Below are positions 2,124 through 24,892 of a stretch of DNA of 25,609 bases, piece by piece. How positions within the stretch are numbered: position 1 is the stretch's first letter; each line of letters opens with the position of its first letter. The translations under genes and the position numbers were made by a program. The notes under the pieces are model-generated. The model searched no databases. It worked only from the letters and a program-made list of their open reading frames with translations, and was not told the origin of the DNA. Location of the stretch: the IMG/VR virus record IMGVR_UViG_3300045988_034843; one strand, given 5' to 3'. Origin of the DNA: a virus. Taxonomy: Duplodnaviria > Heunggongvirae > Uroviricota > Caudoviricetes.

Positions 2124-2138
2124 TTACCTTAAAGGTAA
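2124..2138. promoter_or_regulatory. Dyad operator-like site TTACC-TTAAA-GGTAA (copy 2)
   Basis: Centre 28 bp upstream of the minus-strand ATG at 2103; overlaps a candidate TTGATC-N17-TACCTT promoter on the minus strand. Confidence 0.6.
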
Positions 2139-2216
2139 TATCTTGCTTTCAGGTGATCAAGCGTTAAACGCAATCAACCAAATACGGTTGATTTTAATAT
2201 TTCTTCGCGTTTATCA

Positions 2217-2231
2217 TTACCTTTGCGGTAA
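2217..2231. promoter_or_regulatory. Dyad operator-like site TTACC-TTTGC-GGTAA (copy 3)
   Basis: Same half-sites and spacing; lies in the 400-bp intergenic region between the divergent genes at 2103 and 2503. Confidence 0.55.
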
Positions 2232-2321
2232 ATTTACATTGCACTCCTCTTGTGCCATAGTAATCGGGCACTGGCAAAATCCAGTGCCGGGATTGGTCTC
2301 CCGGATTACTAAGTGGCGCAT

Positions 2322-2344
2322 ACCACGCCAGACGTGGTTTTTTT
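2322..2344 (+). terminator. Rho-independent terminator-like hairpin in the leader upstream of the Ant-like gene
   Basis: ACCACG-CCAGA-CGTGGT stem-loop followed by TTTTTT(T); preceded by two further hairpins at 2267-2288 and 2287-2304. Confidence 0.5.
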
Positions 2345-2502
2345 ATGCGTATAGCACAGTCATGCCAGAATTATGGTGGGCTGAATGGGGGTCCGAAAGG
2401 ACGCCGGTACCACTTAGGCCGGTAAGACCAACTCCGTTCAGTTCACCACCATCTGATTGGTCTCAGCGGTGGTGATGTAATTCGCTAAGTGGAGACGCCA
2501 TC

Positions 2503-3159
2503 ATGAACGCTCAACTCATCCCCGTATTCAACGGCACTATATCTAACGAAACAGCCCTACTTTGTAATGCCCGCGATCTGCACGCTTTTTTAGGTGTTAA
2601 AAAGGTGTTTGCAGCATGGATTACAAATCGCATATCAGAATACGAATTCATTGAAAATCAAGACTATATTTTGCTTTCCAATTTGGGAAAGCAAACATCT
2701 GGTAGAGGCGGCCACAACCGCAAAGAGTACCACCTCACCCTTGATACAGCCAAAGAGCTGGCGATGGTCGAGCGTAACGAAAAAGGTCGCCAGGTGCGAC
2801 GCTACTTCATTGAATGCGAGAAACGTTTAAGACAACAAGAAACAAAAGTGGAGAAGGTCTTGTCAGGCTTCATGCCCGCCATTATGGAGGCGATCAAGCT
2901 GGAAGACAAAAAAGAATACAGCGCCCCACTGAAGCCCGGCTACCGCAGCCTGATTCACTCGCCGTCTGGTGTTCTCGGCCTGACTGAGAACTCACTGCTG
3001 ATGAATCTGCTGAACCAGTTACAGGAAGACGGGCACGATGTATCTGGCGCGGCGGCGGAGCTGACCACCATGTTCTGCTACATCGTTGGTGTGAGCAAAT
3101 GCCTGCGTGATATCCAGACCCACGCGGAGTACATCAACGACAAGGCAGGGTTCTTCTGA
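2503..3159 (+). CDS. Antirepressor-like protein, AntA-type N-terminal domain (218 aa)
   Basis: Track ORF; GGAGA RBS 7 nt upstream; N-terminus IPVFNG...[10 protein letters not shown]...F..W...RI.EYEF.EN.DY resembles the AntA/AntB antirepressor domain as I recall it; C-terminal third is paralogous to the 85-aa protein at 1095-1352. Confidence 0.7.
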
Positions 3160-3607: not shown

Positions 3608-4082
3608 TAACGAAGAAACTGAGTTCGAGGAAGTTGAGGAAGGGCTAAGTAACGAGATCATTCAACACCCAGATGCCTTCACAAGAGTTCTTGATCGCCC
3701 TGAAATTCAGGAGATAGTTGTCGCTCACCATGCGTTTCAGGGGCCGCTTCCTCCCCCCTATCTGCTTCGCGGGTATCAGGATATTTTACCTGATGCCCCC
3801 GAACGCATCTTCCAGTTGACGGAGAAGGAGTTTGCTCACCGCCAGAAAATGGAGGAAAAGGCACTTGACGGGGCTATTAATAGAGATAAACGTGGGCAGT
3901 GGTTTGGCCTGAGTGCAACTATTTTTACAGTAGCTTGTGCAACATTATTAGGTTTAACAGGTCATGAAGTTCTAGCTGGCACAGTGATCGGTACAGTTGT
4001 TGCAGTGGCTGGTATTTTCGTTCTTAGACAAAAACCAAGCATCAAGAAGAAATCTGAAGACAACAAACCTGAAGAAAAGTAA
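3534..4082 (+). CDS. Membrane protein with two C-terminal TM helices, possibly DUF2335-like (182 aa; alternative start 3579 gives 167 aa)
   Basis: Track ORF; overlaps the 3' end of the previous gene in another frame; conserved-looking stretch PLPPPYLLRGYQDILPDAPERIF...HRQ then hydrophobic segments FGLSATIFTVACATLLGL and VIGTVVAVAGIFVL; followed immediately by a terminator. Confidence 0.6.
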   Translation: MQEENQKLKECPSTNMQKSIGQPSDNEETEFEEVEEGLSNEIIQHPDAFTRVLDRPEIQEIVVAHHAFQGPLPPPYLLRGYQDILPDAPERIFQLTEKEFAHRQKMEEKALDGAINRDKRGQWFGLSATIFTVACATLLGLTGHEVLAGTVIGTVVAVAGIFVLRQKPSIKKKSEDNKPEEK

Positions 4083-4103
4083 GCCCGCGCTGCGGGCTTT
4101 TTT
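4082..4103 (+). terminator. Rho-independent terminator AGCCCGC-GCT-GCGGGCT + T6
   Basis: 7-bp GC-rich stem, 3-nt loop, T-run 4098-4103, directly after the stop at 4080-4082. Confidence 0.75.
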
Positions 4104-4175
4104 GTGGACGAAACAAAAGTCAGTGCTACACTCATTGACGCCACATTGAGGTGGCTTATAGATGGAAATTTCACA

Positions 4176-4749: not shown

Positions 4750-4834
4750 AATTACCCCTATCATGGAAAAACAGCACCAATCCACAAATTAACTAGTTAT
4801 TTTATTATTCTTCCGAACAATACAATTCCGAATA

Positions 4835-4960
4835 CTACAAAGCCGAACCATGCCGCTGCACGCAACAGAGATTCCAATTGAAACCCATTTTTATCAAAAT
4901 GTATGAATAGCATAAAAACGCTGCACATATTAGTACAATAAAAGTTATTTGAACCATCAT
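4835..4960 (-). CDS. Small hydrophobic peptide (41 aa), uncertain
   Basis: Own translation: AAGGAG RBS 4 nt before ATGATG at 4960, MMVQITFIVLICAAFLCYSYILIKMGF...; the track lists a different frame (4797-4985) for the same stretch, which lacks an RBS at its internal ATGs; only one of these, or neither, is real. Confidence 0.3.
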   Translation of the reverse strand: MMVQITFIVLICAAFLCYSYILIKMGFNWNLCCVQRHGSAL

Positions 4961-7448: not shown

Positions 7449-9251
7449 TTAACCTCTCAAGAAACACGCCACAGCGACATCAAACAGGCTGGAATCCTGT
7501 ATTGCCTGCTCACTTTCCCTGTTCGCTTCATCCAGTGCTTCACGCGCACTGCGCGATTGTGGATTACCATCATCATCCAGCACGGTGATTATCATGTCCG
7601 GAGATTCAAGCAGCGAGTCTTCAGCTATACGCAGATCAATATCTCCTGCCGGATCTGCCATCATTTTTTGTTCTGTCTGTTGCAATATCTTACCGGGCTC
7701 AAAAGGAGCTACTTCGTCTGGCGTCCTGACCTCTGCTGTTTTATAGAATGAAACAGCCTGAGTATTAAGTTCACTTTCAGCCTGCTGTCTCCGTGCCAGT
7801 TCTGCTCGAGCTTCAAAAAACTGACCGCCAGGCTCATGCGGTGCCAACGCGTTACGAGAAAATTCCAGGCGTTCTTGTGCCTGCCGGATTCGTTGGTCAA
7901 TATCGCGAAGTCTGGCCTGTTTATCTGATCGAGCACGAGATAAAGCCTTACCGCTACCGGCTGGATCTTCTGCAAGAATTTGTGCGCGCTGTTCAGTGAG
8001 ATTTTCAATAATTCGTTGGCTATTAGCGATTTCAGACTGGTAAACCTGTCTATCGCCACGCGGCAAAAGCTGCGCGGCCTGTTCTTCAAGCAACCGATTT
8101 TCTATAGCGCGCGCCGTTACTCCATCATCTACAGATGACAGAGCCTCATTAACTGCCTGAGACAGCAGACTCTTGCGTCCAGGAATTTCACTGAAAGATG
8201 CAGACTCAACAATGCTGGCAACGTCTACAGGTCTCCCCTGGCTAACATCAGACATGGCTTTTCGCAGAGCCTGAATGTGCGAATTACGCGAAAGCACGTT
8301 GATCGGCACGCCGGGAGCAATATCAATTTCAGCATGATGAGCGGCATTCGCCGCCAGTGCAGCATCGATATCAACTGGTGAAAAATTTGGTGCGCTTGTA
8401 GACTCGCCGCGAGAGTTAATAAATCTGCCGACACCACCAAACGCCACCCCAAGAACAGCATCAATAGCAATTGCCTGTCGATCCAACACATCATACTGGT
8501 TAGCCATTTCGCTATAGCCACCATCACGAAGCGTTTTTGCAGTAAGCCCACGCTGTGCCATACCGAACGCAATATTTGTACCTGCGGCATAGGCAATATC
8601 TGGCGTTGCACGTACTGCTGTTGCTGCGGCGCGTCGCACTGAACTTTCACCCGTCCGCGCAAGCTGAGCCGCCACACCTTCCGCCAGCGCACCACCAGCA
8701 CGTAACCCGAGGCTCATAGGGATCAGTGTTCCGGCACCAGCAGTAATACCCTGCACTAATCCCGCTTCCTGCGCCGTCCTGAAATCAACACCCTGTGCTG
8801 TCAGCCGTTCAAACTCAGAAAAACCCTGTAGAGAAGTTACCGCCGCAGCACCTCCGACCGGACCACCGAGCGTTGTACCGACAACAGCCTGCCCGCCCAT
8901 ATCGAACAACCCATAAAGAACCTGCCCGGCGGTTCCGGTTGTCGCGGCATCAGGCGTCAGCCGCTTAACCTGCTGTTCTGCTAGTTTTCTCTGCTCGGCA
9001 ATGTATGAAACTGAAGTATCATTGAGCGAGGTGTTTTCGTTAATAAACTGAGCAATCGGGGATACGATTTTATCCATCCCTGCCCATAGCAACTGATCTG
9101 GCTTTGCCACCAGCCCGGAGTACAAACCAGACAATGCCGCTCCTACAGCATTGTCGAAAAAACCAACATCGCTGTTAAAGCCCGCTGGATTTGATGCTGC
9201 TTCGTCAAGCTGCTGATTCTGGTTTACTGGATTAAGGCCAAAGTAACTCAT
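7449..9251 (-). CDS. Internal virion / ejection protein (600 aa)
   Basis: Track ORF; Ala/Gly-rich, start overlaps the upstream stop (translational coupling). Confidence 0.6.
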   Translation of the reverse strand: MSYFGLNPVNQNQQLDEAASNPAGFNSDVGFFDNAVGAALSGLYSGLVAKPDQLLWAGMDKIVSPIAQFINENTSLNDTSVSYIAEQRKLAEQQVKRLTPDAATTGTAGQVLYGLFDMGGQAVVGTTLGGPVGGAAAVTSLQGFSEFERLTAQGVDFRTAQEAGLVQGITAGAGTLIPMSLGLRAGGALAEGVAAQLARTGESSVRRAAATAVRATPDIAYAAGTNIAFGMAQRGLTAKTLRDGGYSEMANQYDVLDRQAIAIDAVLGVAFGGVGRFINSRGESTSAPNFSPVDIDAALAANAAHHAEIDIAPGVPINVLSRNSHIQALRKAMSDVSQGRPVDVASIVESASFSEIPGRKSLLSQAVNEALSSVDDGVTARAIENRLLEEQAAQLLPRGDRQVYQSEIANSQRIIENLTEQRAQILAEDPAGSGKALSRARSDKQARLRDIDQRIRQAQERLEFSRNALAPHEPGGQFFEARAELARRQQAESELNTQAVSFYKTAEVRTPDEVAPFEPGKILQQTEQKMMADPAGDIDLRIAEDSLLESPDMIITVLDDDGNPQSRSAREALDEANRESEQAIQDSSLFDVAVACFLRG

Positions 9252-17054: not shown

Positions 17055-18047
17055 TTACACCACGCGGGCTTCTGTTTCCAGAAGTGCGTCAGTTTCGCGA
17101 ATCGGCACACCACGAATTTCTGTCCACCATTCGCCTTCTGTCTCTTTCACGCTGATCGCCAGAGAACTCTTCTCCAGAGATTGCAGGTCAAGCACTTCGT
17201 TAATGGTTCTGTTCATGTAGAAAATAGGACGTCCCATCCCACGATTTGGGATTCGATGAAGGGCACGAATCATCAGTTTTGCGATATTCGCAGCAGTAGA
17301 AGGAGCGTCAAGATTGCTGACATCGATGTTTGCAATGCGAACAACATAGCGCCAGTCACGCAATGTCAGCCCGTTGTCCCACTTATAATGGGTACGATAA
17401 CCTTCGTACTTGCCGCCATTAGCATCTTCCAGTGTCACCTGGCCTTTATCTTCCATCTGGATGCCAGCCTTCTGCCCTTTCGGGAAGATGCCATGCACGG
17501 TGTTTTCGCCCCACACCACTAACCAGATTGAAGTGTTATCTGTACCCGTGCCACCAGCATCAATGATGTTCTGAGCATTACCCGCAGACAGGCTGGAATA
17601 GCGGGAGGACAGTCCCATAAACTGCTGAGGGTTAACGCTGGAATCACCGTAAAACAGCGTCTGCGCCATCGCCTGATTCATCGCTTCAATAAATGCTCGG
17701 TCTTCAGACAGGCGGAATTCGGCAGTATTACCGTTCAGATCAGCCAGAGACTTATCGACTTCAGCATAGGTTTCCAGCATGCCAATGGAATCAGTGACCT
17801 GCACCGTTGTTGATTTGCTCGGTTGTACGCCATAGTTCAGCAAACGCCAAGTAGCGGAAGGCAAACCAGAACGAATGGTGGTTCGGTGTCCGGTAGGAAG
17901 GTTTCCTTCAACAAAAGGCATATCCTGAAGGATTGGGTTGGTTTGACTGAGAAGCTCGATAATCTTATCGACTTTCCCGTTTGGATCGACGCGCTTACCC
18001 CAGTCAGCCAGCGTTAGCGCAGTTAAGCCTTTAACAGCCATTGTCAT
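17055..18047 (-). CDS. Major capsid protein (330 aa; start may be the second ATG at 18041)
   Basis: Track ORF; directly downstream of an acidic scaffold-like gene and upstream of the decoration-like genes; size typical for podovirus capsid proteins; GAGAGGAA RBS. Confidence 0.6.
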   Translation of the reverse strand: MTMAVKGLTALTLADWGKRVDPNGKVDKIIELLSQTNPILQDMPFVEGNLPTGHRTTIRSGLPSATWRLLNYGVQPSKSTTVQVTDSIGMLETYAEVDKSLADLNGNTAEFRLSEDRAFIEAMNQAMAQTLFYGDSSVNPQQFMGLSSRYSSLSAGNAQNIIDAGGTGTDNTSIWLVVWGENTVHGIFPKGQKAGIQMEDKGQVTLEDANGGKYEGYRTHYKWDNGLTLRDWRYVVRIANIDVSNLDAPSTAANIAKLMIRALHRIPNRGMGRPIFYMNRTINEVLDLQSLEKSSLAISVKETEGEWWTEIRGVPIRETDALLETEARVV

Positions 18048-18753: not shown

Positions 18754-19050
18754 TCACTCCTGTTCACTGGCCTCTTTGGCCATCTTCAAATACTGTTCAG
18801 GGCAATGCGCCATAACGCGCTGAAACAGTTCCAGCGCCAGATTGCGTTGCCCCTCATTAAATGCCATTGCCATAGCGTCCATCGGTGAGATAGCGGAAAA
18901 CACACGGCCTTTCTCCAGCACCGACCAGACAACGCGACGCCCCTGTTCACTGCTCATGACAAAGCAAATGTCATCAATTTCACGCTGTGCCATGTCACGT
19001 TGCTTACGGGCGTTTTCTTCTTTCAGTTGATCGTCTTCGTAATCTGTCAT
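18754..19050 (-). CDS. Hypothetical protein (98 aa)
   Basis: Track ORF; ATGA overlap with the portal stop; charged, no motif recognised. Confidence 0.5.
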   Translation of the reverse strand: MTDYEDDQLKEENARKQRDMAQREIDDICFVMSSEQGRRVVWSVLEKGRVFSAISPMDAMAMAFNEGQRNLALELFQRVMAHCPEQYLKMAKEASEQE

Positions 19051-20726
19051 TGTGATTGCCCACCCTGACCACTAACTGCATTCGCCATAGCTGACAAAAC
19101 ACTCGGATCCGAAGTTTTAGCTTCGCTTAGCGTCTTGGCACCCTGTGCCGCCGCCATCCCCATCGCCATCATTTGTTGCTGCTGTTGTTGCTGTGCCCGT
19201 TGCTGGCGAGCCTGCTCAACCTGTTCCTGCGGAACAATGACGGTTGGAGACACTCCGGACATATCAGCGAATGCATCGATCGCCTGATCAACGTTGAGTT
19301 TGTCGAGAGCTTCTGGTTTCGCTTGCGCAAGTTGACCAATGAAGTTGACCGTAGACACCAGACTGGACAGGCCGATAGACTTCTGCGCCTGAGCCATGAC
19401 GGAAATGTATTCGACCTTCAGGGGCATACCTTCCATCGCGTCAGGCGGTGGCGGCAGCATGTTTTTACGCACCATCATCGAGAAAGCGCGGTCAATGAGA
19501 GGATTAAGACATTCGTCGTTCAGACGCTCCAGAACCGGCCCCAACATCAGAAGTTTTTCTTCTTTCATTTCGATCACCGCTTCAACAGGCATCGAGCGGG
19601 TATTGATGTTCTGCAACATCATGAACAGATCGACAAAGTAGGCGCTGTTAATGATTTGACGGGTGTCCTGAATGTCTGCCACCAAATCTGCTGTACTGGG
19701 GTTAACCAGATAAGCAGGCCTGAAACCATCCTGACCAGTAATCTGATCGATATACGTGATGTCGCCAGGAAGAAGGGAGGCACGCTGATTCTTGAGGGAA
19801 GTCGGAGCAACCATCGGCGGATTGGTGGCTTTATCAATCAACTGCGACTTGCGCTTCTGGAGAAGCTGCAATGCCTTAACAGGTCCAAGCGCCAGCATAC
19901 CCGGGCATGATGATCCATAAACATCTTCGCCGTTAACTTCCCAGCGCGGAGCCATAATTGGAAACTCATCGAATCCGGACTCACGCAACAACTTGTCGTT
20001 ATCGCCACCAACCTCGTAATAAACCGATTTGAATGGCTTGTTCTTGCTATCCAGCTTCGATGTATCGCGGTCAATGTTCGGGTAAACCGAATGCATCACT
20101 TCAATCCACTTCTCGTAGGTTCCGCTTTCCCACATGCTTTTTACGGATTCGCTGACGTTATTTAGCCCGAACTCCTGAACAAGCTGACGAACAGTCATAG
20201 AGAACTTGCGAAAACAGGTGTCCACACTGCCACGAGGTGAGTTAGCCAGGTAGTAACTGCCTATCGGGAATGGCATTGTGCGAATGATGTCCTCGTCATC
20301 CTCCAGCACTGCCATTGCACCAGTGCTGTATGTGCCGAGGCTTCCGTATAACTGCGGCAGCGACTGATAGAGATTCGACTTATTGAACATATCGTTCATG
20401 CGGTTCTGCACCGCCTCAAGCCACAACTTAACAGGGCCATAATCCATCATTTCAGGATCTGGCGTAGCCAGGCGAAACCACGGACGCGCGGGGCTTGTGA
20501 TGCCTGACATCATGCCGCTGGCGAGAGTGCGCGCCGCCATAGTCCCGGTCGAATCAATAATGCGTGTATTGCGTCGATCGTTACGGTTAACCTCAGAAGT
20601 CAGAAAGCGGGAACCACGCGGGTTGATGTAATCACTCAACTCGCGCCAGTGCGGCTCGAACGACTGACGCTCGCTTTCAAGTTGTGCGAACTGTTTGTTC
20701 AATCGCTCTTTAGTTGTTTCCGCCAT
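19047..20726 (-). CDS. Portal protein (559 aa)
   Basis: Track ORF; position between terminase and scaffold/capsid, size appropriate; Gln-rich C-terminal tail; GGAGTCATTGAAATG initiation region. Confidence 0.6.
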   Translation of the reverse strand: MAETTKERLNKQFAQLESERQSFEPHWRELSDYINPRGSRFLTSEVNRNDRRNTRIIDSTGTMAARTLASGMMSGITSPARPWFRLATPDPEMMDYGPVKLWLEAVQNRMNDMFNKSNLYQSLPQLYGSLGTYSTGAMAVLEDDEDIIRTMPFPIGSYYLANSPRGSVDTCFRKFSMTVRQLVQEFGLNNVSESVKSMWESGTYEKWIEVMHSVYPNIDRDTSKLDSKNKPFKSVYYEVGGDNDKLLRESGFDEFPIMAPRWEVNGEDVYGSSCPGMLALGPVKALQLLQKRKSQLIDKATNPPMVAPTSLKNQRASLLPGDITYIDQITGQDGFRPAYLVNPSTADLVADIQDTRQIINSAYFVDLFMMLQNINTRSMPVEAVIEMKEEKLLMLGPVLERLNDECLNPLIDRAFSMMVRKNMLPPPPDAMEGMPLKVEYISVMAQAQKSIGLSSLVSTVNFIGQLAQAKPEALDKLNVDQAIDAFADMSGVSPTVIVPQEQVEQARQQRAQQQQQQQMMAMGMAAAQGAKTLSEAKTSDPSVLSAMANAVSGQGGQSQ

Positions 20727-20740
20727 TTCAATGACTCCGG

Positions 20741-20947
20741 TTACTGACCAAGCAGCGTTTTACCGCTGGTATTAGCAGTTGATGTGTCGCCCTGAGAACC
20801 GGTAAGCAGCGTAGAACTACGACCAGCAGCAGCGCGACGGCGACGAGTTTCTTCGTCGCGGGCATCAACAACGGCGGCATCCTGCTCCTGTGGTGCTGCC
20901 TGAACTTCTGGTGTTGCAGGCACTGATGGTGAGCTACCCATGCACAT
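20741..20947 (-). CDS. Small hypothetical protein (68 aa) upstream of portal
   Basis: Track ORF; initiation region GGAGTCATTGATATG nearly identical to that of the portal gene; the overlapping alternative frame 20728-20967 was not preferred. Confidence 0.4.
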   Translation of the reverse strand: MCMGSSPSVPATPEVQAAPQEQDAAVVDARDEETRRRRAAAGRSSTLLTGSQGDTSTANTSGKTLLGQ

Positions 20948-21036
20948 ATCAATGACTCCGTACGCAATTAAATTATTACCAATTTAACCACATATGATTT
21001 ATTTATCGTAGACAGTTGACATTTAACGCGCGAATT

Positions 21037-21051
21037 ATTACCTTTCAGGTA
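21037..21051. promoter_or_regulatory. Dyad operator-like site TTACC-TTTCA-GGTAA (copy 5)
   Basis: Same half-sites and spacing; preceded by TTGACA (21016-21021) 17 bp before TACCTT; lies between the 20947 minus-strand start and the plus-strand tRNA. Confidence 0.6.
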
Positions 21052-21374
21052 ACCAAAGAGTTCATTCCGGTTACTAACCTGACTGGCTTGTCGTTAAATT
21101 GAACAGGTGGAGTGAGCTTTTATTTTGAGCAGTACGGCGTATGGCACATGCGCCGATAGCGGTCTGGATGCGTTTAAGGGGCACCCTCCCTGGCTGTGGC
21201 AAACGAACCAGGTAGCCGGAATGTGCAAGTCGAGCGGTTTTATTCCGCGCACGGGGATTCACCATCCCGGCGATTCGGTGTGACGCCTCGGAAGAGACGA
21301 GGGTACAACGATGAGAGCATTTATGGAGCCGCGACAAAGTGTGGCGCCTTAACAGGCTAAGTGCTCTCAGCGTT

Positions 21375-21451
21375 GTGGCATTAGCTCAGTTGGACAGAGC
21401 AACCGCCTTCTAAGCGGTTGGTCGCAGGTTCGAATCCTGCATGCCACGCCA
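21375..21451 (+). tRNA. tRNA-Arg (anticodon UCU), 77 nt with encoded CCA
   Basis: Hand-folded cloverleaf: acceptor GTGGCAT/ATGCCAC, D-arm GCTC-AGTTGGACA-GAGC, anticodon stem ACCGC/GCGGT with loop CTTCTAA, T-arm GCAGG-TTCGAAT-CCTGC, discriminator G, CCA; close to but not identical with E. coli argU as I recall it. Confidence 0.85.
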
Positions 21452-21494
21452 GAATCACGCCTAAGGACCGTGATGCCAGAAGTTCCAGGGGCTT

Positions 21495-21536
21495 GGCGGT
21501 GATGGTTTCCCTTGAAGGACTATCACCGCCCTTTTT
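21495..21536 (+). terminator. Rho-independent terminator after the tRNA
   Basis: GGCGGTGAT...ATCACCGCC 9-bp stem followed by CTTTTT. Confidence 0.65.
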
Positions 21537-21614
21537 ACAGCAGGGCGCCATTGCGATGGCTTCATGCTGTAAACCAGTACAGCCACGGAAGGCATAACTC
21601 ATTGCTTCCAGTTC

Positions 21615-21638
21615 GCCCGGTTCGCCGGGCATTTTTTT
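21615..21638 (+). terminator. Rho-independent terminator-like hairpin abutting the RBS of the 140-aa gene
   Basis: GCCCGG-TTCG-CCGGGC followed by ATTTTTTT, then AAGGTGA RBS and ATG at 21650. Confidence 0.6.
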
Positions 21639-21649
21639 AAGGTGAGATC

Positions 21650-22072
21650 ATGAAAACAGCCGACATGCTAGCTAAATATCTAAATGAATGGCCGTGCAAA
21701 TATGTACGCATTGTTCAGGGTGATGATTCAATTTTTTATGGTGTTTTTGCAGGAAATGAAATGCTTTGTGAAGCAATTCCAGGTGAGCGACTTGCCGGGT
21801 TAACGCTTAGCGATGACCATGGAATAGGAGTTACTTGCCATGACTGGATTTCAGCGCAGAAAACTGAAATGGAAAAAGGCAATGTGTTTGATATTTCTCG
21901 CGCTGTATACGCCAAAGAAAAAAGTGATGATGATTACATGCGCGAAAACTTATACAACATGAAGTTACAATGCCTGGCTGAAGTGCTTAGTAAAAGATCT
22001 TTACTTGATGTGGTTGGTGCTGAGCAGGACGCCAAGGCAATCAACGCCGCATTCGATAAAATAACCTTCTAA
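21650..22072 (+). CDS. Hypothetical protein (140 aa), opposite-strand insert (moron) between terminase and portal
   Basis: Track ORF; AAGGTGA RBS; AT-rich relative to flanking structural genes; bracketed by terminators; no motif recognised. Confidence 0.65.
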   Translation: MKTADMLAKYLNEWPCKYVRIVQGDDSIFYGVFAGNEMLCEAIPGERLAGLTLSDDHGIGVTCHDWISAQKTEMEKGNVFDISRAVYAKEKSDDDYMRENLYNMKLQCLAEVLSKRSLLDVVGAEQDAKAINAAFDKITF

Positions 22073-22076
22073 CGCC

Positions 22077-22088
22077 GTGACATGTCAC
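22077..22088. repeat. 12-bp perfect palindrome GTGACATGTCAC (copy 2)
   Basis: Identical 16-mer context (CGTGACATGTCACAAT) to copy 3; sits between the stop at 22072 and the terminator at 22093. Confidence 0.6.
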
Positions 22089-22092
22089 AATC

Positions 22093-22117
22093 AGCCCGCC
22101 GATTCGCGGGCTTTTTT
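22093..22117 (+). terminator. Rho-independent terminator AGCCCGC-CGATTC-GCGGGCT + T6
   Basis: 7-bp stem and T-run; the T-run overlaps the last codons of the minus-strand terminase gene. Confidence 0.7.
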
Positions 22118-23591
22118 ATGCAAAAGGATCATAGTCTGTGATGGCTTTGCCTTGCTGGTTCTGCTGCCCGGGAATTCGCAGACGCTTCGACACAGGGAAC
22201 GCAAACGTCAGCAGTAGCGCATCGCCTTTACCAGGAGAACGCCCAAGTCGCTCTTTGATATCTTCCTTCGGTTCGATAACGATTTTACCGTCCACGCGAA
22301 CTTTGTACTCTGCCGTCGACAGGTCGTCCGCTGTTTCCTGGTCATCCAGCATGCCGCCGAGCCTCAGCCATGTCTTGCATGAGTTGAACATCTCCCCACG
22401 CTTGTTGAGCATCTGCGGGTCAGTAGACGCGCCACCGAACGGAACAAGTTGCCATGTACGACCCCAGCCGTCACCGATTGACTTCAAACCGGTTCCGTAA
22501 CCGAAGTCGATGAACACCGCGTCAGCCTGATACTGGTCTTCAAAGTCAGCGATACGCTTCGCCATAATCAGATCGTCGGTAGTCTTGTTGCCAGTCCACA
22601 GCACCTTACTGTGTAGCCCCTGCCGCAGGTATATCACCGCGTCATCAACGCCTGAATATGCCGGGTCAACACCGATTATCACCGGAGCATGTGCAACCTG
22701 CGCAGCGGTTACCACCCGTTTCATTGCCTCGTCAGTAAGACCGGTAGGGATAAACTGCAATTCAGATGCATCAGGGAATATGCCACGCACACGGATTTTA
22801 ACGAAGTCGCTATCTTCCCCGTAGTCATCAACCCATTTCTGCAACTGCTGTTTGTTGGTGCCTTCCACCGTCCTGCTGTCAATCTGCGCAGTTTTCCAGC
22901 GGTGTTTGTATTTGCGGAAACATTCACGGAAACGCCCGGTGTTACGTGTAGGGTTTCCGAAAGCCACCCAGATAATCTCAGTGTCTTCGTCCGTTAGCGC
23001 ACCCTCGGCAACTTCCCACACCAGATCCGCAATGTTCGACGCTTCATCAAATACCACGATGATGCGTTTACGCTCGTTGTGTAGTCCGGCGAATGCCTCA
23101 GTGTTGTGCTCAGACCAGGGGATTGCGTCAGCTCGCCACCGCTTGTCGTGCCCAGGGTCATTGCTGTACATCGCGGTAGCGGTACAGGTAAACCAGTCTT
23201 TCGTGATAGCAAGGTTTGACCACTTGATAATTTCCGGCCAGGTCTTCGTTCGTAGCTGGTTGTCGGTGTTGGCGGTCACCACGACCTTACAATCCTCGCA
23301 AGTGGACATGCCCCAGTTGATCAGCATTGAGATGAATGCGGATTTACCAATACCGTGACCAGAAGCACGTGCCAGCATAAGCGGCTGATATCGCGTCTCT
23401 GGATTCTGCAGGTGATCACGTATCTCTCGGAACGCATCAGCCTGCCACTGACGTGGGCCGGTGGCATGTGCCAGTTCAGTCCCCTCTTCCCCCCATGGGA
23501 ACGCATAGAGGGCATAGCCAAGCGGATCGTGAGTGAACCCTGCAATATCCTCGATTAACTGCTCTTCAGGAGATAACGCTGTATCTGTCAC
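22116..23591 (-). CDS. Terminase large subunit (491 aa)
   Basis: Track ORF; Walker A-like GHGIGKS, Walker B-like IIVVFDEAS, C-terminal acidic nuclease-like region (GVDPAYSGVDD); ATGA overlap with the upstream small subunit. Confidence 0.8.
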   Translation of the reverse strand: MTDTALSPEEQLIEDIAGFTHDPLGYALYAFPWGEEGTELAHATGPRQWQADAFREIRDHLQNPETRYQPLMLARASGHGIGKSAFISMLINWGMSTCEDCKVVVTANTDNQLRTKTWPEIIKWSNLAITKDWFTCTATAMYSNDPGHDKRWRADAIPWSEHNTEAFAGLHNERKRIIVVFDEASNIADLVWEVAEGALTDEDTEIIWVAFGNPTRNTGRFRECFRKYKHRWKTAQIDSRTVEGTNKQQLQKWVDDYGEDSDFVKIRVRGIFPDASELQFIPTGLTDEAMKRVVTAAQVAHAPVIIGVDPAYSGVDDAVIYLRQGLHSKVLWTGNKTTDDLIMAKRIADFEDQYQADAVFIDFGYGTGLKSIGDGWGRTWQLVPFGGASTDPQMLNKRGEMFNSCKTWLRLGGMLDDQETADDLSTAEYKVRVDGKIVIEPKEDIKERLGRSPGKGDALLLTFAFPVSKRLRIPGQQNQQGKAITDYDPFA

Positions 23592-24187
23592 TGATTGCCA
23601 TCCTGACGTTCTTTCAGTCTCTTCCTGGCTGCCGCTATGCGATCAGCAATTGTCACATTCACATTAACATCCAGGCGTTCTTTGAATGCGTTGACGTCGA
23701 CGTGCTTACCAATCAGTTCGAGGTTCTTCACCTTGTCAGGCCATTTAATTTTTTTGAGGATGCCAACCAGCTCTTTCTCGTCTCCACGGCCTTCGAACAT
23801 GTCGGCCAGTTCGAAACCTGTCAGGTACTGCCGCCAGACCTTAGGCCATTCCGAGACCGGCTTGATGCTCATATCGTCGTTGAGAATGTCAATCACGTCC
23901 ATCTGGTCGATCTCCACCAGGCGCATGAGAACGTAATCAGCACTGACGCGCATTCGTTTGTTGCGCTCCTCCATCAACTCGGCAATCCGTTTCTGAATGC
24001 GTTCATCGCGCATCATGACACTGGCTTTAACTGCCGCTGTATTTGGGGAGAATCCTGCATTAATCGCAGCCTGAGTCTGGTTTTCAGGCGTTTTGATGTA
24101 TGACTGGCAATAAGCCTCCTGCATTGCTGTTAGTGGCTTAAATTGCGTTGATTTGCGTTTATAGGTTTTAGGTTCAGCAGGCATCAT
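23588..24187 (-). CDS. Terminase small subunit (199 aa from ATGATG at 24187)
   Basis: Track ORF 23588-24265 begins at a TTG; the in-frame ATGATG at 24187 is preferred; helix-turn-helix-like TAMQEAYCQSYIKTPENQTQAAINAGFSP; directly upstream of and overlapping the large subunit. Confidence 0.55.
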   Translation of the reverse strand: MMPAEPKTYKRKSTQFKPLTAMQEAYCQSYIKTPENQTQAAINAGFSPNTAAVKASVMMRDERIQKRIAELMEERNKRMRVSADYVLMRLVEIDQMDVIDILNDDMSIKPVSEWPKVWRQYLTGFELADMFEGRGDEKELVGILKKIKWPDKVKNLELIGKHVDVNAFKERLDVNVNVTIADRIAAARKRLKERQDGNQ

Positions 24188-24204
24188 AACCACCGTGGTA
24201 ATAG

Positions 24205-24219
24205 TTACCGTTGTGGTAA
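24205..24219. promoter_or_regulatory. Dyad operator-like site TTACC-GTTGT-GGTAA (copy 6), embedded in GGTAA-TAG-TTACC-GTTGT-GGTAA-TAG-TACC
   Basis: Centre 25 bp upstream of the terminase small-subunit ATG; extra half-sites on both sides form a tandem GTGGTAATAG(T)TACC direct repeat. Confidence 0.55.
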
Positions 24220-24230
24220 TAGTACCATGC

Positions 24231-24256
24231 AAAATAAAGCCGCCATAGTTGGCGGC
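24231..24256 (-). terminator. Rho-independent terminator (minus-strand reading GCCGCCA-ACTA-TGGCGGC + TTTATTTT)
   Basis: 7-bp GC stem followed by a T-rich run on the minus strand, upstream of the terminase genes. Confidence 0.65.
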
Positions 24257-24297
24257 AGTATTCAAAACCCATCAAATTCATCATGCATAACCCACTC

Positions 24298-24309
24298 GTG
24301 ACATGTCAC
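24298..24309. repeat. 12-bp perfect palindrome GTGACATGTCAC (copy 3)
   Basis: Overlaps the stop codon of the gene at 24306-24644 and lies about 40 bp from the terminator at 24231-24256. Confidence 0.6.
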
Positions 24310-24644
24310 AATATTAATTTCGTTTCATGCCAGCCTTTAGTCACCCAGCATTGCGAGTCACCATTACACGGGCATGAATTCACAGGAACGCTCTCGCCGC
24401 ACTTACCGCAACGTTTTCTGCTGATCGATTTTATACGCCCGCGCACGCGTGCATCATCCTGGCGGATCAGTAACGCTATATACTCACCAAATTCGTAAGG
24501 CGCACGCCCGGGGCGACGCGTGGCACAGTTACGCTCAAGCATTTCAATTTCCTGAGCATCAAGCACAATCTCCAGCTTACGCACACCAGATGCAGCTTGT
24601 CTGGCTCTCTGAGCGGCTTTGCGCTCTGCTGCTGATTTAGCCAT
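24306..24644 (-). CDS. Small basic protein with C-terminal Cys cluster (112 aa)
   Basis: Internal ATG of track ORF 24306-24722 with AAGG 9 nt upstream; basic N-terminus MAKSAAERKAAQRARQAASGVRK; C-terminus CGKCGESVP...CPC...C resembles C4 zinc-finger regulators of the TraR/DksA type (tentative). Confidence 0.5.
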   Translation of the reverse strand: MAKSAAERKAAQRARQAASGVRKLEIVLDAQEIEMLERNCATRRPGRAPYEFGEYIALLIRQDDARVRGRIKSISRKRCGKCGESVPVNSCPCNGDSQCWVTKGWHETKLIL

Positions 24645-24670
24645 TGATTTAACCTTTATTGCGAACATAT

Positions 24671-24892
24671 TTATCTGTGTGTTGCCGATGTGCGGTGATT
24701 CTCTTCTATCAATTCCACGCATTCTGACCGACGAACAAATAATTCTTCTCCGTTATGAATTACGACATAGCCGTAAGCGGTTTTACGCATCACATCGAAC
24801 TCATCCCATACGGAAATACCACACTCTGCTAACGAGCAATCCAAATAATCTTCCGGATGCTTGTCGGTGTTATTAATGATGCGAATCCTCAA
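24671..24892 (-). CDS. Hypothetical protein (73 aa), TTG start
   Basis: Track ORF; AAGGTG RBS about 7 nt before a TTG start; an internal ATG start is an alternative. Confidence 0.4.
   Translation of the reverse strand: MRIRIINNTDKHPEDYLDCSLAECGISVWDEFDVMRKTAYGYVVIHNGEELFVRRSECVELIEENHRTSATHR

Follow-up and report, generated by a model that had tools for sequence, protein, structure and literature searches.

The prophage stretch IMGVR_UViG_3300045988_034843 (25,609 nucleotides; here called the window) carries, between its terminase and portal genes, a conserved structured RNA of ~245 nucleotides (nt) at positions 21134 to 21376, just upstream of a tRNA-Arg(UCU) gene. The RNA lies outside Rfam 15 and is unannotated in the phage and RefSeq records that we inspected, whereas the tRNA and the hypothetical open reading frame (ORF) downstream of it are already present in public annotation. 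These parts belong to a plus-strand unit (positions 21016 to 22117) with the order predicted promoter overlapped by an operator-like palindrome, structured RNA, tRNA, two terminators (T1 and T2), exchangeable 140-amino-acid (aa) cargo ORF, and a third terminator (T3). We propose that the unit is a single early transcription unit in which the RNA would act in cis, in the manner of the put antiterminator RNAs of phage HK022, to carry RNA polymerase through T1 and T2 to the cargo. Arguing by analogy, we put the probability of this reading at about 45%.

BLAST searches revealed that the 170 to 250 nt upstream of the tRNA recur at ~72 to 82% identity in unlike phages, in stretches that contain no credible genes. 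An alignment of these relatives supplied an invariant 18-mer, with which a scan of IMG/VR gave at least 120 loci and, at ~93% identity, 41 representatives (individual loci and phage records are designated here by L numbers). Invariant blocks such as GGTAGCCGGAATGTGCAAG alternate in the alignment with stems that show compensatory changes. The core has six helices and one covarying pseudoknot and is followed by a long closing helix whose final two bases are the first two of the tRNA (Table 1). Among 23 diverse cores, 98.4% of cells pair in the six-helix structure, compared with 89.3% in shuffles and 26 to 50% when the partners are slid, and double changes are found in 10 of the 28 pairs. Hits of 115 to 178 bits to a covariance model of the family (R1) gave 60 distinct sequences, in which 98.4% of cells pair and 12 of the 18 nested pairs show double changes and whose observed score was reached by none of 500 shuffles; the window itself scores 155.7 bits (21132 to 21314). 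The pseudoknot PK2 covaries as well, with the P4 loop CACC and its partner GGTG shifting from C:G to A:U. For a second possible pseudoknot (GCACAU with AUGUGC), invariance leaves no covariation to test. Frequent G-U pairs are compatible with the plus strand only. The duplex of the closing helix has a folding energy of -23.1 kcal/mol (z, -5.1), and a long-range closing helix with differing sequences and inserts of 12 to 173 nt is present in 13 diverse family members; the enclosed insert differs even between near-identical cores (e.g., those of the window and L037). We conclude that the element is functional as an RNA.

When all 4227 covariance models of Rfam 15 were run on positions 20950 to 22150, the tRNA alone matched, even at E values up to 10. 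A protein-coding reading of positions 21074 to 21360 was rejected on the grounds that indel lengths are not divisible by three, that the changes are compensatory, and that one such ORF contains the tRNA. We likewise rejected the possibility that the insert encodes a small peptide (ATG at GATGAGAGC), since the start codon is missing there in many members, and that it forms a tRNA-like structure, for which T-loop-like runs in L106 and SPN1S had been considered, since ARAGORN and the Rfam tRNA model find nothing there. Hypothetical ORFs have been annotated over the RNA, tRNA, or terminator stretch in four records, namely PhiV10p04 (L001, 2982 to 3233), mEp460_037 (L003, 2443 to 2811), Tyrion gp54 (L009, 2211 to 2372), and SPN1S_0004 (L011, 2462 to 2632); these are probably not genes.

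The region downstream of the core varies in other ways. In L010 (2219 to 2330), as well as in L038, L039, L077, and L100, a different conserved 3' module (ATATCAGCCATTCAC...GGTGCTTAGCGGGACTGGAAGAGTTACC...GGTCCYTTTAAATGTCCTGG) replaces the closing helix after the core. Recombination thus joins the core to alternative 3' modules. In L106, a stretch of 47 nt (3971 to 4017) between the RNA and T1 matches a small-subunit rRNA model (33.4 bits; E value, 1.4e-7). Given that this rRNA-like fragment takes the position of tRNA-Arg, the space from the RNA to T1 may be a slot for RNA cargo.

The RNA is widespread. Its relatives detected by BLAST include the lambdoid phages mEp460, cdtI, and 2H10, Shiga toxin 2c (Stx2c)-converting phages, the phages P1, P7, and D6, and a Stenotrophomonas phage. 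At least 80% of the core is covered in 1823 of the 5426 complete E. coli genomes, with 554 of the places on plasmids, and the RNA is found in many Enterobacteriaceae genera. It carries no annotation in any record listed, and literature searches yielded no description of it, although prior mention of related sequences is possible. No tRNA adjoins the RNA in ~30 of 40 representatives, and fusion of tRNA-Arg to its 3' end is confined to some Uetakeviruses. Since most representatives lack an adjacent tRNA, the RNA is an independent module. Neither a reverse transcriptase nor a recombinase adjoins it; its neighbors are cI, cII, and early-left genes, or the genes for the large terminase (TerL), the portal, and the cargo.

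The contexts in which the RNA occurs have repressor control in common. In ~20 distinct lambdoid immunity regions, the order is a cI-like repressor gene (helix-turn-helix and peptidase S24 domains), a terminator, operator repeats, a TTGACA-type promoter, and the core. The operator repeats are partly common to the cI-cro region, the core lies within a few tens of bases of the predicted leftward early promoter (PL), and the other strand carries a CII-family gene, accompanied in many loci by a short ORF at the position of cro. Because of this order, the RNA is placed at the very start of the early-left (PL) transcript. The RNA of phages P1 and P7 is flanked by trnI and ban and belongs to the ban operon, which C1 controls. 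In the window, the core starts ~80 nt after the predicted promoter, which is overlapped by a palindrome of the form TTACCT-N3-AGGTAA. This pattern has 8 matches in the window, versus 0.45 expected, including matches at 1004, 2124, and 2217 in an immI-like region upstream of isrK, C4, and AntA. In the epsilon15 record, a repressor site is annotated at the equivalent place, between gp3 and the cargo gene and ~100 bases downstream of the end of gp3. All three settings (lambdoid, P1/P7, and the window) are phage-repressor-controlled operons. The promoter itself was read from the sequence; a consensus scan of positions 20600 to 22400, which is insensitive, gave nothing promoter-like beyond an alternative pair of hexamers (Table 1).

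Two lambdoid-type arrangements deserve separate mention. L029 has two tandem same-strand copies of the RNA ~800 nt apart (3988 to 4155 and 4795 to 4960, minus strand), whereas all other loci have one; a second, putR-like copy downstream of the rightward promoter was not found in the lambdoid loci. L027 and L100 have an additional ~300 nt of conserved leader (CATCAACAGCGAACAGGCAGGACGCC...) after the cI-like gene, separating the predicted PL from the core; this leader may be another RNA element.

In lambdoid and Uetakevirus loci alike, the first gene downstream of the RNA is preceded by T1 and often by T2 too; in mEp460, for example, T1 lies between PL and the first early-left ORF. The T1 element (GGCGGT...ACCGCC CTTTTTACA) is found 3' of the RNA in both kinds of locus and shows compensatory stem changes, while the T2 element (GCCCGG...CCGGGC ATTTTTTTA) recurs in both and is also kept in epsilon15, SPN1S, Tyrion, and the Stenotrophomonas phage. 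Since the conserved T1, and often T2, precedes them, the early genes need readthrough. The RNA is the only constant upstream companion of the strong, conserved T1.

In the window, T2 is directly 5' of AAGGTGAGATC, which is followed by the ATG at 21650, and the insensitive consensus scan found no promoter-like site between T1 and the ORF. An original prediction, made from the sequence alone, had described two terminators in this unit and held that the second leaves no room for a promoter ahead of the ORF. Both terminators are indeed present (the consensus scan detects three T-run hairpins in the unit), and T2 does abut the ribosome-binding site. The dependence of the ORF on terminator readthrough that was surmised from this arrangement fits the anatomy, with the upstream RNA now a candidate mechanism. 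T3 closes the unit against the end of TerL and is annotated as a rho-independent terminator in the phiV10 record.

Epsilon15 (L006, 2648 to 2830) is a deletion derivative that keeps helix P1 and the start of helix P2. One deletion has taken out the remainder of the RNA along with the tRNA and the 5' half of T1; T2 and a cargo ORF are retained. Such a joint loss fits a functional tie of the RNA to T1.

By analogy, the RNA likely works like put. HK022 putL and the "putL-like antiterminator RNA" annotated in the HK639 record both lie right after PL, so that these elements and the new RNA are alike in being located immediately downstream of a repressor-controlled early promoter of a temperate enterobacterial phage, with terminators after them. 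The first hairpin of the new RNA, ACGGCG-UAUGGCA-CAUGCG(U/C)CG, has both stem strands and the CAUG in common with put stem I, and the window RNA contains this hairpin (ACGGCG...CAUGCGUCG) with its CAUG. The pattern ACGGCG-N5-20-CATGCGYCG occurs at 21134 to 21155, versus 0.01 expected in the window, and is found once per locus in both the new RNA and put. The cryo-electron microscopy structure of put with polymerase shows the U of this CAUG, an essential base, inserted into a pocket of the beta' zinc-binding domain (PMC9378689). The new RNA family has CAUG without exception. Further resemblances to put were noted by eye: AGCGG compared with GGCGG, CCGGAAUG compared with CGGCAAUG, and a GGAAGAG loop as in HK639. 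The HK639 record (L134) also annotates an "M3-like RNA" at 7911 to 7970, downstream of the CII-like gene in the right operon; no second copy of put is found there.

From these parts and their order, we infer the transcription start, polymerase binding, antitermination, and tRNA processing as follows. The unit would be under phage repressor control, and upon derepression RNA polymerase would transcribe the structured RNA first. The nascent RNA would fold and remain on its own polymerase, as put does in HK022, making that polymerase resistant to T1 and T2 so that it reaches the cargo ORF; polymerases begun elsewhere would halt at the terminators. The tRNA would be excised from the same transcript and would supply AGA decoding.

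A number of observations weigh against this proposal, which rests on position and analogy. A put covariance model (R2) built from 14 put sequences recovers HK022 putL (96 bits), HK639 putL (91.5 bits), and HK022 putR (32.6 bits) but, at E values up to 10, misses the RNA both in the window and in 8 related loci, and BLAST of the full elements against the HK022 immunity region detects no homology. Since the put model misses the RNA and its architecture is much larger, we rejected filing it as a put family member. Put comprises ~70 nt and two stems, whereas the core of the new RNA comprises ~180 nt, six helices, and pseudoknots; unlike put, the new RNA also has a long closing helix with a hypervariable insert and is found in P1-like and epsilon15-like phages. 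The P1 and P7 cores have neither a closing helix nor a T1 after them, and they do not form the 5' end of the operon. T2 may be leaky, since epsilon15 keeps it ahead of the cargo in the absence of the RNA. T1 is a conserved part of the module and would also fit a discrete RNA gene ending there. Readthrough of T3 would run polymerase antisense into TerL, and the proposal gives no role to the hypervariable insert.

The conservation of T1 together with the RNA across phage types is also an argument for a rather unlikely alternative, a discrete, stable noncoding RNA that acts in trans. Transcripts would then end at T1, which would form the 3' end; RNase P and other nucleases would free the tRNA and a ~320-nt RNA that acts elsewhere, for example by binding or sequestering a host factor; and the cargo would be expressed only by leakage through T1 and T2. 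The overlap of the closing helix with the first two bases of the tRNA means that RNase P cleavage would set the 3' end of the RNA, other pieces of RNA occupy the tRNA position in relatives (a hairpin in mEp460 and the rRNA-like fragment in L106), and the strongly conserved unpaired blocks would suit a binding surface. However, the lambdoid early-left operon lies wholly behind the RNA and T1, and its sole operator-controlled promoter is upstream of both; simple termination at T1 would therefore silence essential early genes. The P1/P7 core, moreover, has no T1 at which such an RNA could end.

A role as a nut-like platform, on which a protein antiterminator or host Nus factors assemble and the protein modifies polymerase, appears quite improbable. 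Like lambda nutL, the RNA lies in a PL leader upstream of terminators. On its 3' strand, the closing helix has the sequence GTGCTCTC or GTGCTCTTT, similar to boxA, and many lambdoid members have this boxA-like GCTCTY run followed by a covarying hairpin at the place of boxB (GCGCA-GGCTGA-TGCGC, GCACA...TGTGC, or GGCGG...CCGCC). Unlike in nutL with its N protein, the bases resembling boxA are engaged in a covariation-supported helix, and the large core has no nut counterpart. In the window, the tRNA stands in place of the boxB-like hairpin. The first downstream ORFs lie behind T1 and show no Pfam match to an N-like protein, and the lambdoid, P1, and Uetakevirus contexts have no protein family in common.

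The compact pseudoknotted fold, the invariant junction bases, and the arrangement of a 5' leader followed by an intrinsic terminator are the usual layout of a riboswitch, and readthrough of T1 could in principle be set by a host metabolite, ion, or other signal that gates early lytic transcription. We give such a sensor only a slim chance: between the core and T1 lie 180 to 600 nt that vary in sequence and include a whole tRNA, no aptamer can be seen to overlap the terminator stem, and P1 and P7 lack T1.

The reading that we hold to be very improbable is a simple accessory insert of a codon-compensating tRNA and a moron gene, with 21016 to 21375 serving only as promoter and spacer; the AGA and AGG usage of the phage, the lower G+C content of the ORF, and the differing slot content among relatives would suit it, but the slot is ancestral to the genus and the supposed spacer is a covarying RNA in 1823 of 5426 E. 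coli genomes, mostly without an adjacent tRNA. The original prediction had likewise taken 21016 to 21375 as plain spacer; that view is contradicted by the covariation and distribution data, since 21134 to 21376 is the conserved structured RNA.

Table 1. Coordinates of the structured RNA, the remaining parts of its unit, and neighboring genes in the window
Feature	Position	Strand	Sequence or detail	Basis
Predicted sigma-70-like promoter	21016-21044	+	TTGACA 21016-21021, 17-nt spacer, TACCTT 21039-21044	Read from sequence
Alternative promoter pair	21009-21014 and 21033-21038	+	TAGACA, 18 nt, AATTAT	Consensus scan
Operator-like palindrome	21038-21052		TTACCTTTCAGGTAA; overlaps -10 hexamer and start region	
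5' leader	21053-21133	+	Predicted start site to RNA core; conserved in Uetakeviruses (Tyrion, PAT1, epsilon15)	BLAST
RNA core	21134-21304	+	Six helices and one covarying pseudoknot	
P1	21135-21139 with 21151-21155	+		
Possible pseudoknot	21144-21149 with 21221-21226	+	GCACAT with ATGTGC	
P2	21163-21166 with 21209-21212	+	TCTG with CAGG	
Invariant block	21211-21229	+	GGTAGCCGGAATGTGCAAG	
P4	21254-21257 with 21265-21268	+	GGGA with TCCC, within hairpin 21253-21268	
Pseudoknot PK2	P4 loop with 21277-21280	+	CACC with GGTG	
P5	21286-21302	+	CCTCG-GAAGAGA-CGAGG	
Closing helix	21305-21319 with 21362-21376	+	ACAACGATGAGAGCA with TGCTCTCAGCGTTGT; encloses hypervariable insert 21320-21361	
tRNA-Arg(UCU)	21375-21451	+	Encoded CCA	ARAGORN; Rfam tRNA
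T1	21495-21538 (hairpin 21495-21530)	+	GGCGGTGATGG...CTATCACCGCC then CTTTTTAC; hairpin -22 kcal/mol	Consensus scan
T2	21615-21638 (hairpin 21615-21630, T-run 21632-21638)	+	GCCCGGTTCGCCGGGC then ATTTTTTT	Consensus scan
Ribosome-binding site	21639-21645	+	AAGGTGA	
140-aa cargo ORF	21650-22072	+		
T3	22093-22117 (hairpin 22093-22112)	+	AGCCCGCCGATTCGCGGGCT then TTTTT	Consensus scan
Small terminase (TerS)	23588-24265	minus		
Large terminase (TerL)	22116-23591	minus		
gp3-like gene	20741-20947	minus		
Portal	19047-20726	minus		
Major capsid protein	17055-18047	minus		

The window is an E. coli prophage of the phiV10/epsilon15-like kind (Uetakevirus), in which positions 20900 to 22200 are 99.6 to 99.8% identical to many RefSeq E. 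coli chromosomes and 97 to 98% identical to phages phiV10 and PAS61. As first described, the unit lies on the plus strand between minus-strand TerL and gp3/portal genes. It had been called an insert. A plus-strand slot is, however, already present between TerL and gp3/portal in all the Uetakeviruses examined (epsilon15, phiV10, TL-2011b, SPN1S, Tyrion, and PAT1), which makes the slot ancestral to the genus rather than an insertion. Only the ORF in it is variable: among the 41 representative loci, at least 6 unrelated protein families are occupants, including phrog_4846 (the window ORF), a coiled-coil membrane-like protein of 200 to 260 aa, and N4 gp49/Sf6 gp66 (PF13876).

The 140-aa ORF is acidic (isoelectric point, 4.8) and has a G+C content of 40.9%, compared with 49.3% for the window. 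It has 111 homologues, all unnamed and full length down to ~40% identity, in Escherichia, Salmonella, Citrobacter, Klebsiella, Enterobacter, and Hafnia; this distribution across Enterobacteriaceae identifies it as a real gene, and the conservation that was called for when the ORF was first proposed is thus evident. The protein, first put forward as a candidate host-modulating or anti-defense factor, is phrog_4846, listed as function unknown. It has no match in Pfam, NCBIfam, or PDB sequences and none among the PADLOC defense-system models at E values up to 1, and an AlphaFold2 model of it (pLDDT, 79) gave no meaningful fold match. The homology between the window and phiV10 ends at 21650, the A of the ATG, and returns at 22070, the stop codon. 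The ORF is thus swapped between relatives exactly from start codon to stop codon, and since homology breaks precisely there, the exchange proceeds via the conserved T2/ribosome-binding site and T3 flanks. The slot resembles the moron or accessory-gene slots of temperate phages in holding an opposite-strand, lower-G+C gene between terminators, with content that varies among close relatives. Unlike a moron cassette with its own promoter, the window cargo has none directly upstream by the consensus scan and sits behind a shared RNA-tRNA-terminator cassette; the exactness of the exchange is a further difference from moron slots.

The tRNA-Arg(UCU) with encoded CCA was also correctly recognized at the outset. 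ARAGORN calls it, and no other tRNA, in the window, with the anticodon tct at position 35, and it scores 73.3 bits with the Rfam model RF00005 (tRNA), whose gathering score is 29. Its 3' end reads ...ATGCCACGCCA and stops with GCCACGCCA at 21451, so that the discriminator G and the CCA are encoded. This tRNA is already annotated in RefSeq E. coli genomes and several phage records. AGA and AGG are used at 6.7 and 2.9 per 1000 codons in the phage genes of the window, while E. coli uses roughly 2 AGA and 1 AGG per 1000 codons; the higher phage level would fit the usual codon-supply role of such tRNAs. By themselves, the tRNA and the 140-aa gene are ordinary. In Stx phages, the ileZ-argN-argO tRNAs lie upstream of stx, and the likeness is that of a rare-codon tRNA-Arg(UCU) inside a regulated phage transcript. 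In the ban operon of P1 and P7, a tRNA directly adjoins the new RNA, as tRNA-Arg does in the window. The window tRNA differs from both in overlapping the closing helix of the RNA by 2 bases and in being followed by two terminators.

Two further features of the prophage were noted. Positions 2124 to 3159 constitute a P1/P7-type immI module in a Uetakevirus prophage: isrK (2268 to 2344) and a C4 antisense RNA (2369 to 2453) lie upstream of the AntA antirepressor gene (2503 to 3159), and two TTACCT-N3-AGGTAA palindromes, at 2124 and 2217, precede them. A 138-aa protein encoded immediately upstream of the small terminase gene (24306 to 24722, minus strand) matches phrog_536, "transcriptional regulator," and could be a late-gene regulator of the window phage.

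More tentatively than for the window unit itself, we suggest that the RNA founds a large, undescribed class of cis-acting phage RNAs that reprogram the host polymerase. Such RNAs would be either expanded relatives of put or convergent analogues, would serve lambdoid, P1-like, and epsilon15-like prophages, and would have a closing helix that tolerates or displays a hypervariable insert. Processive antitermination by RNA alone is known from a few put sequences, all in HK022-like phages, and tends to be regarded as a curiosity. Several spurious ORF annotations over the RNA would be corrected by its recognition, and if it acts in trans instead, it would be a widespread prophage RNA that is also noteworthy. 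If the proposed mechanism is true, a second, structurally distinct RNA would become available for studying how a nascent transcript modifies RNA polymerase, and the expression of genes behind strong terminators in these phages would be explained. RNA-only antitermination would then be common and would govern early genes in many enterobacterial prophages, including Stx2c-converting phages and P1-like plasmids.

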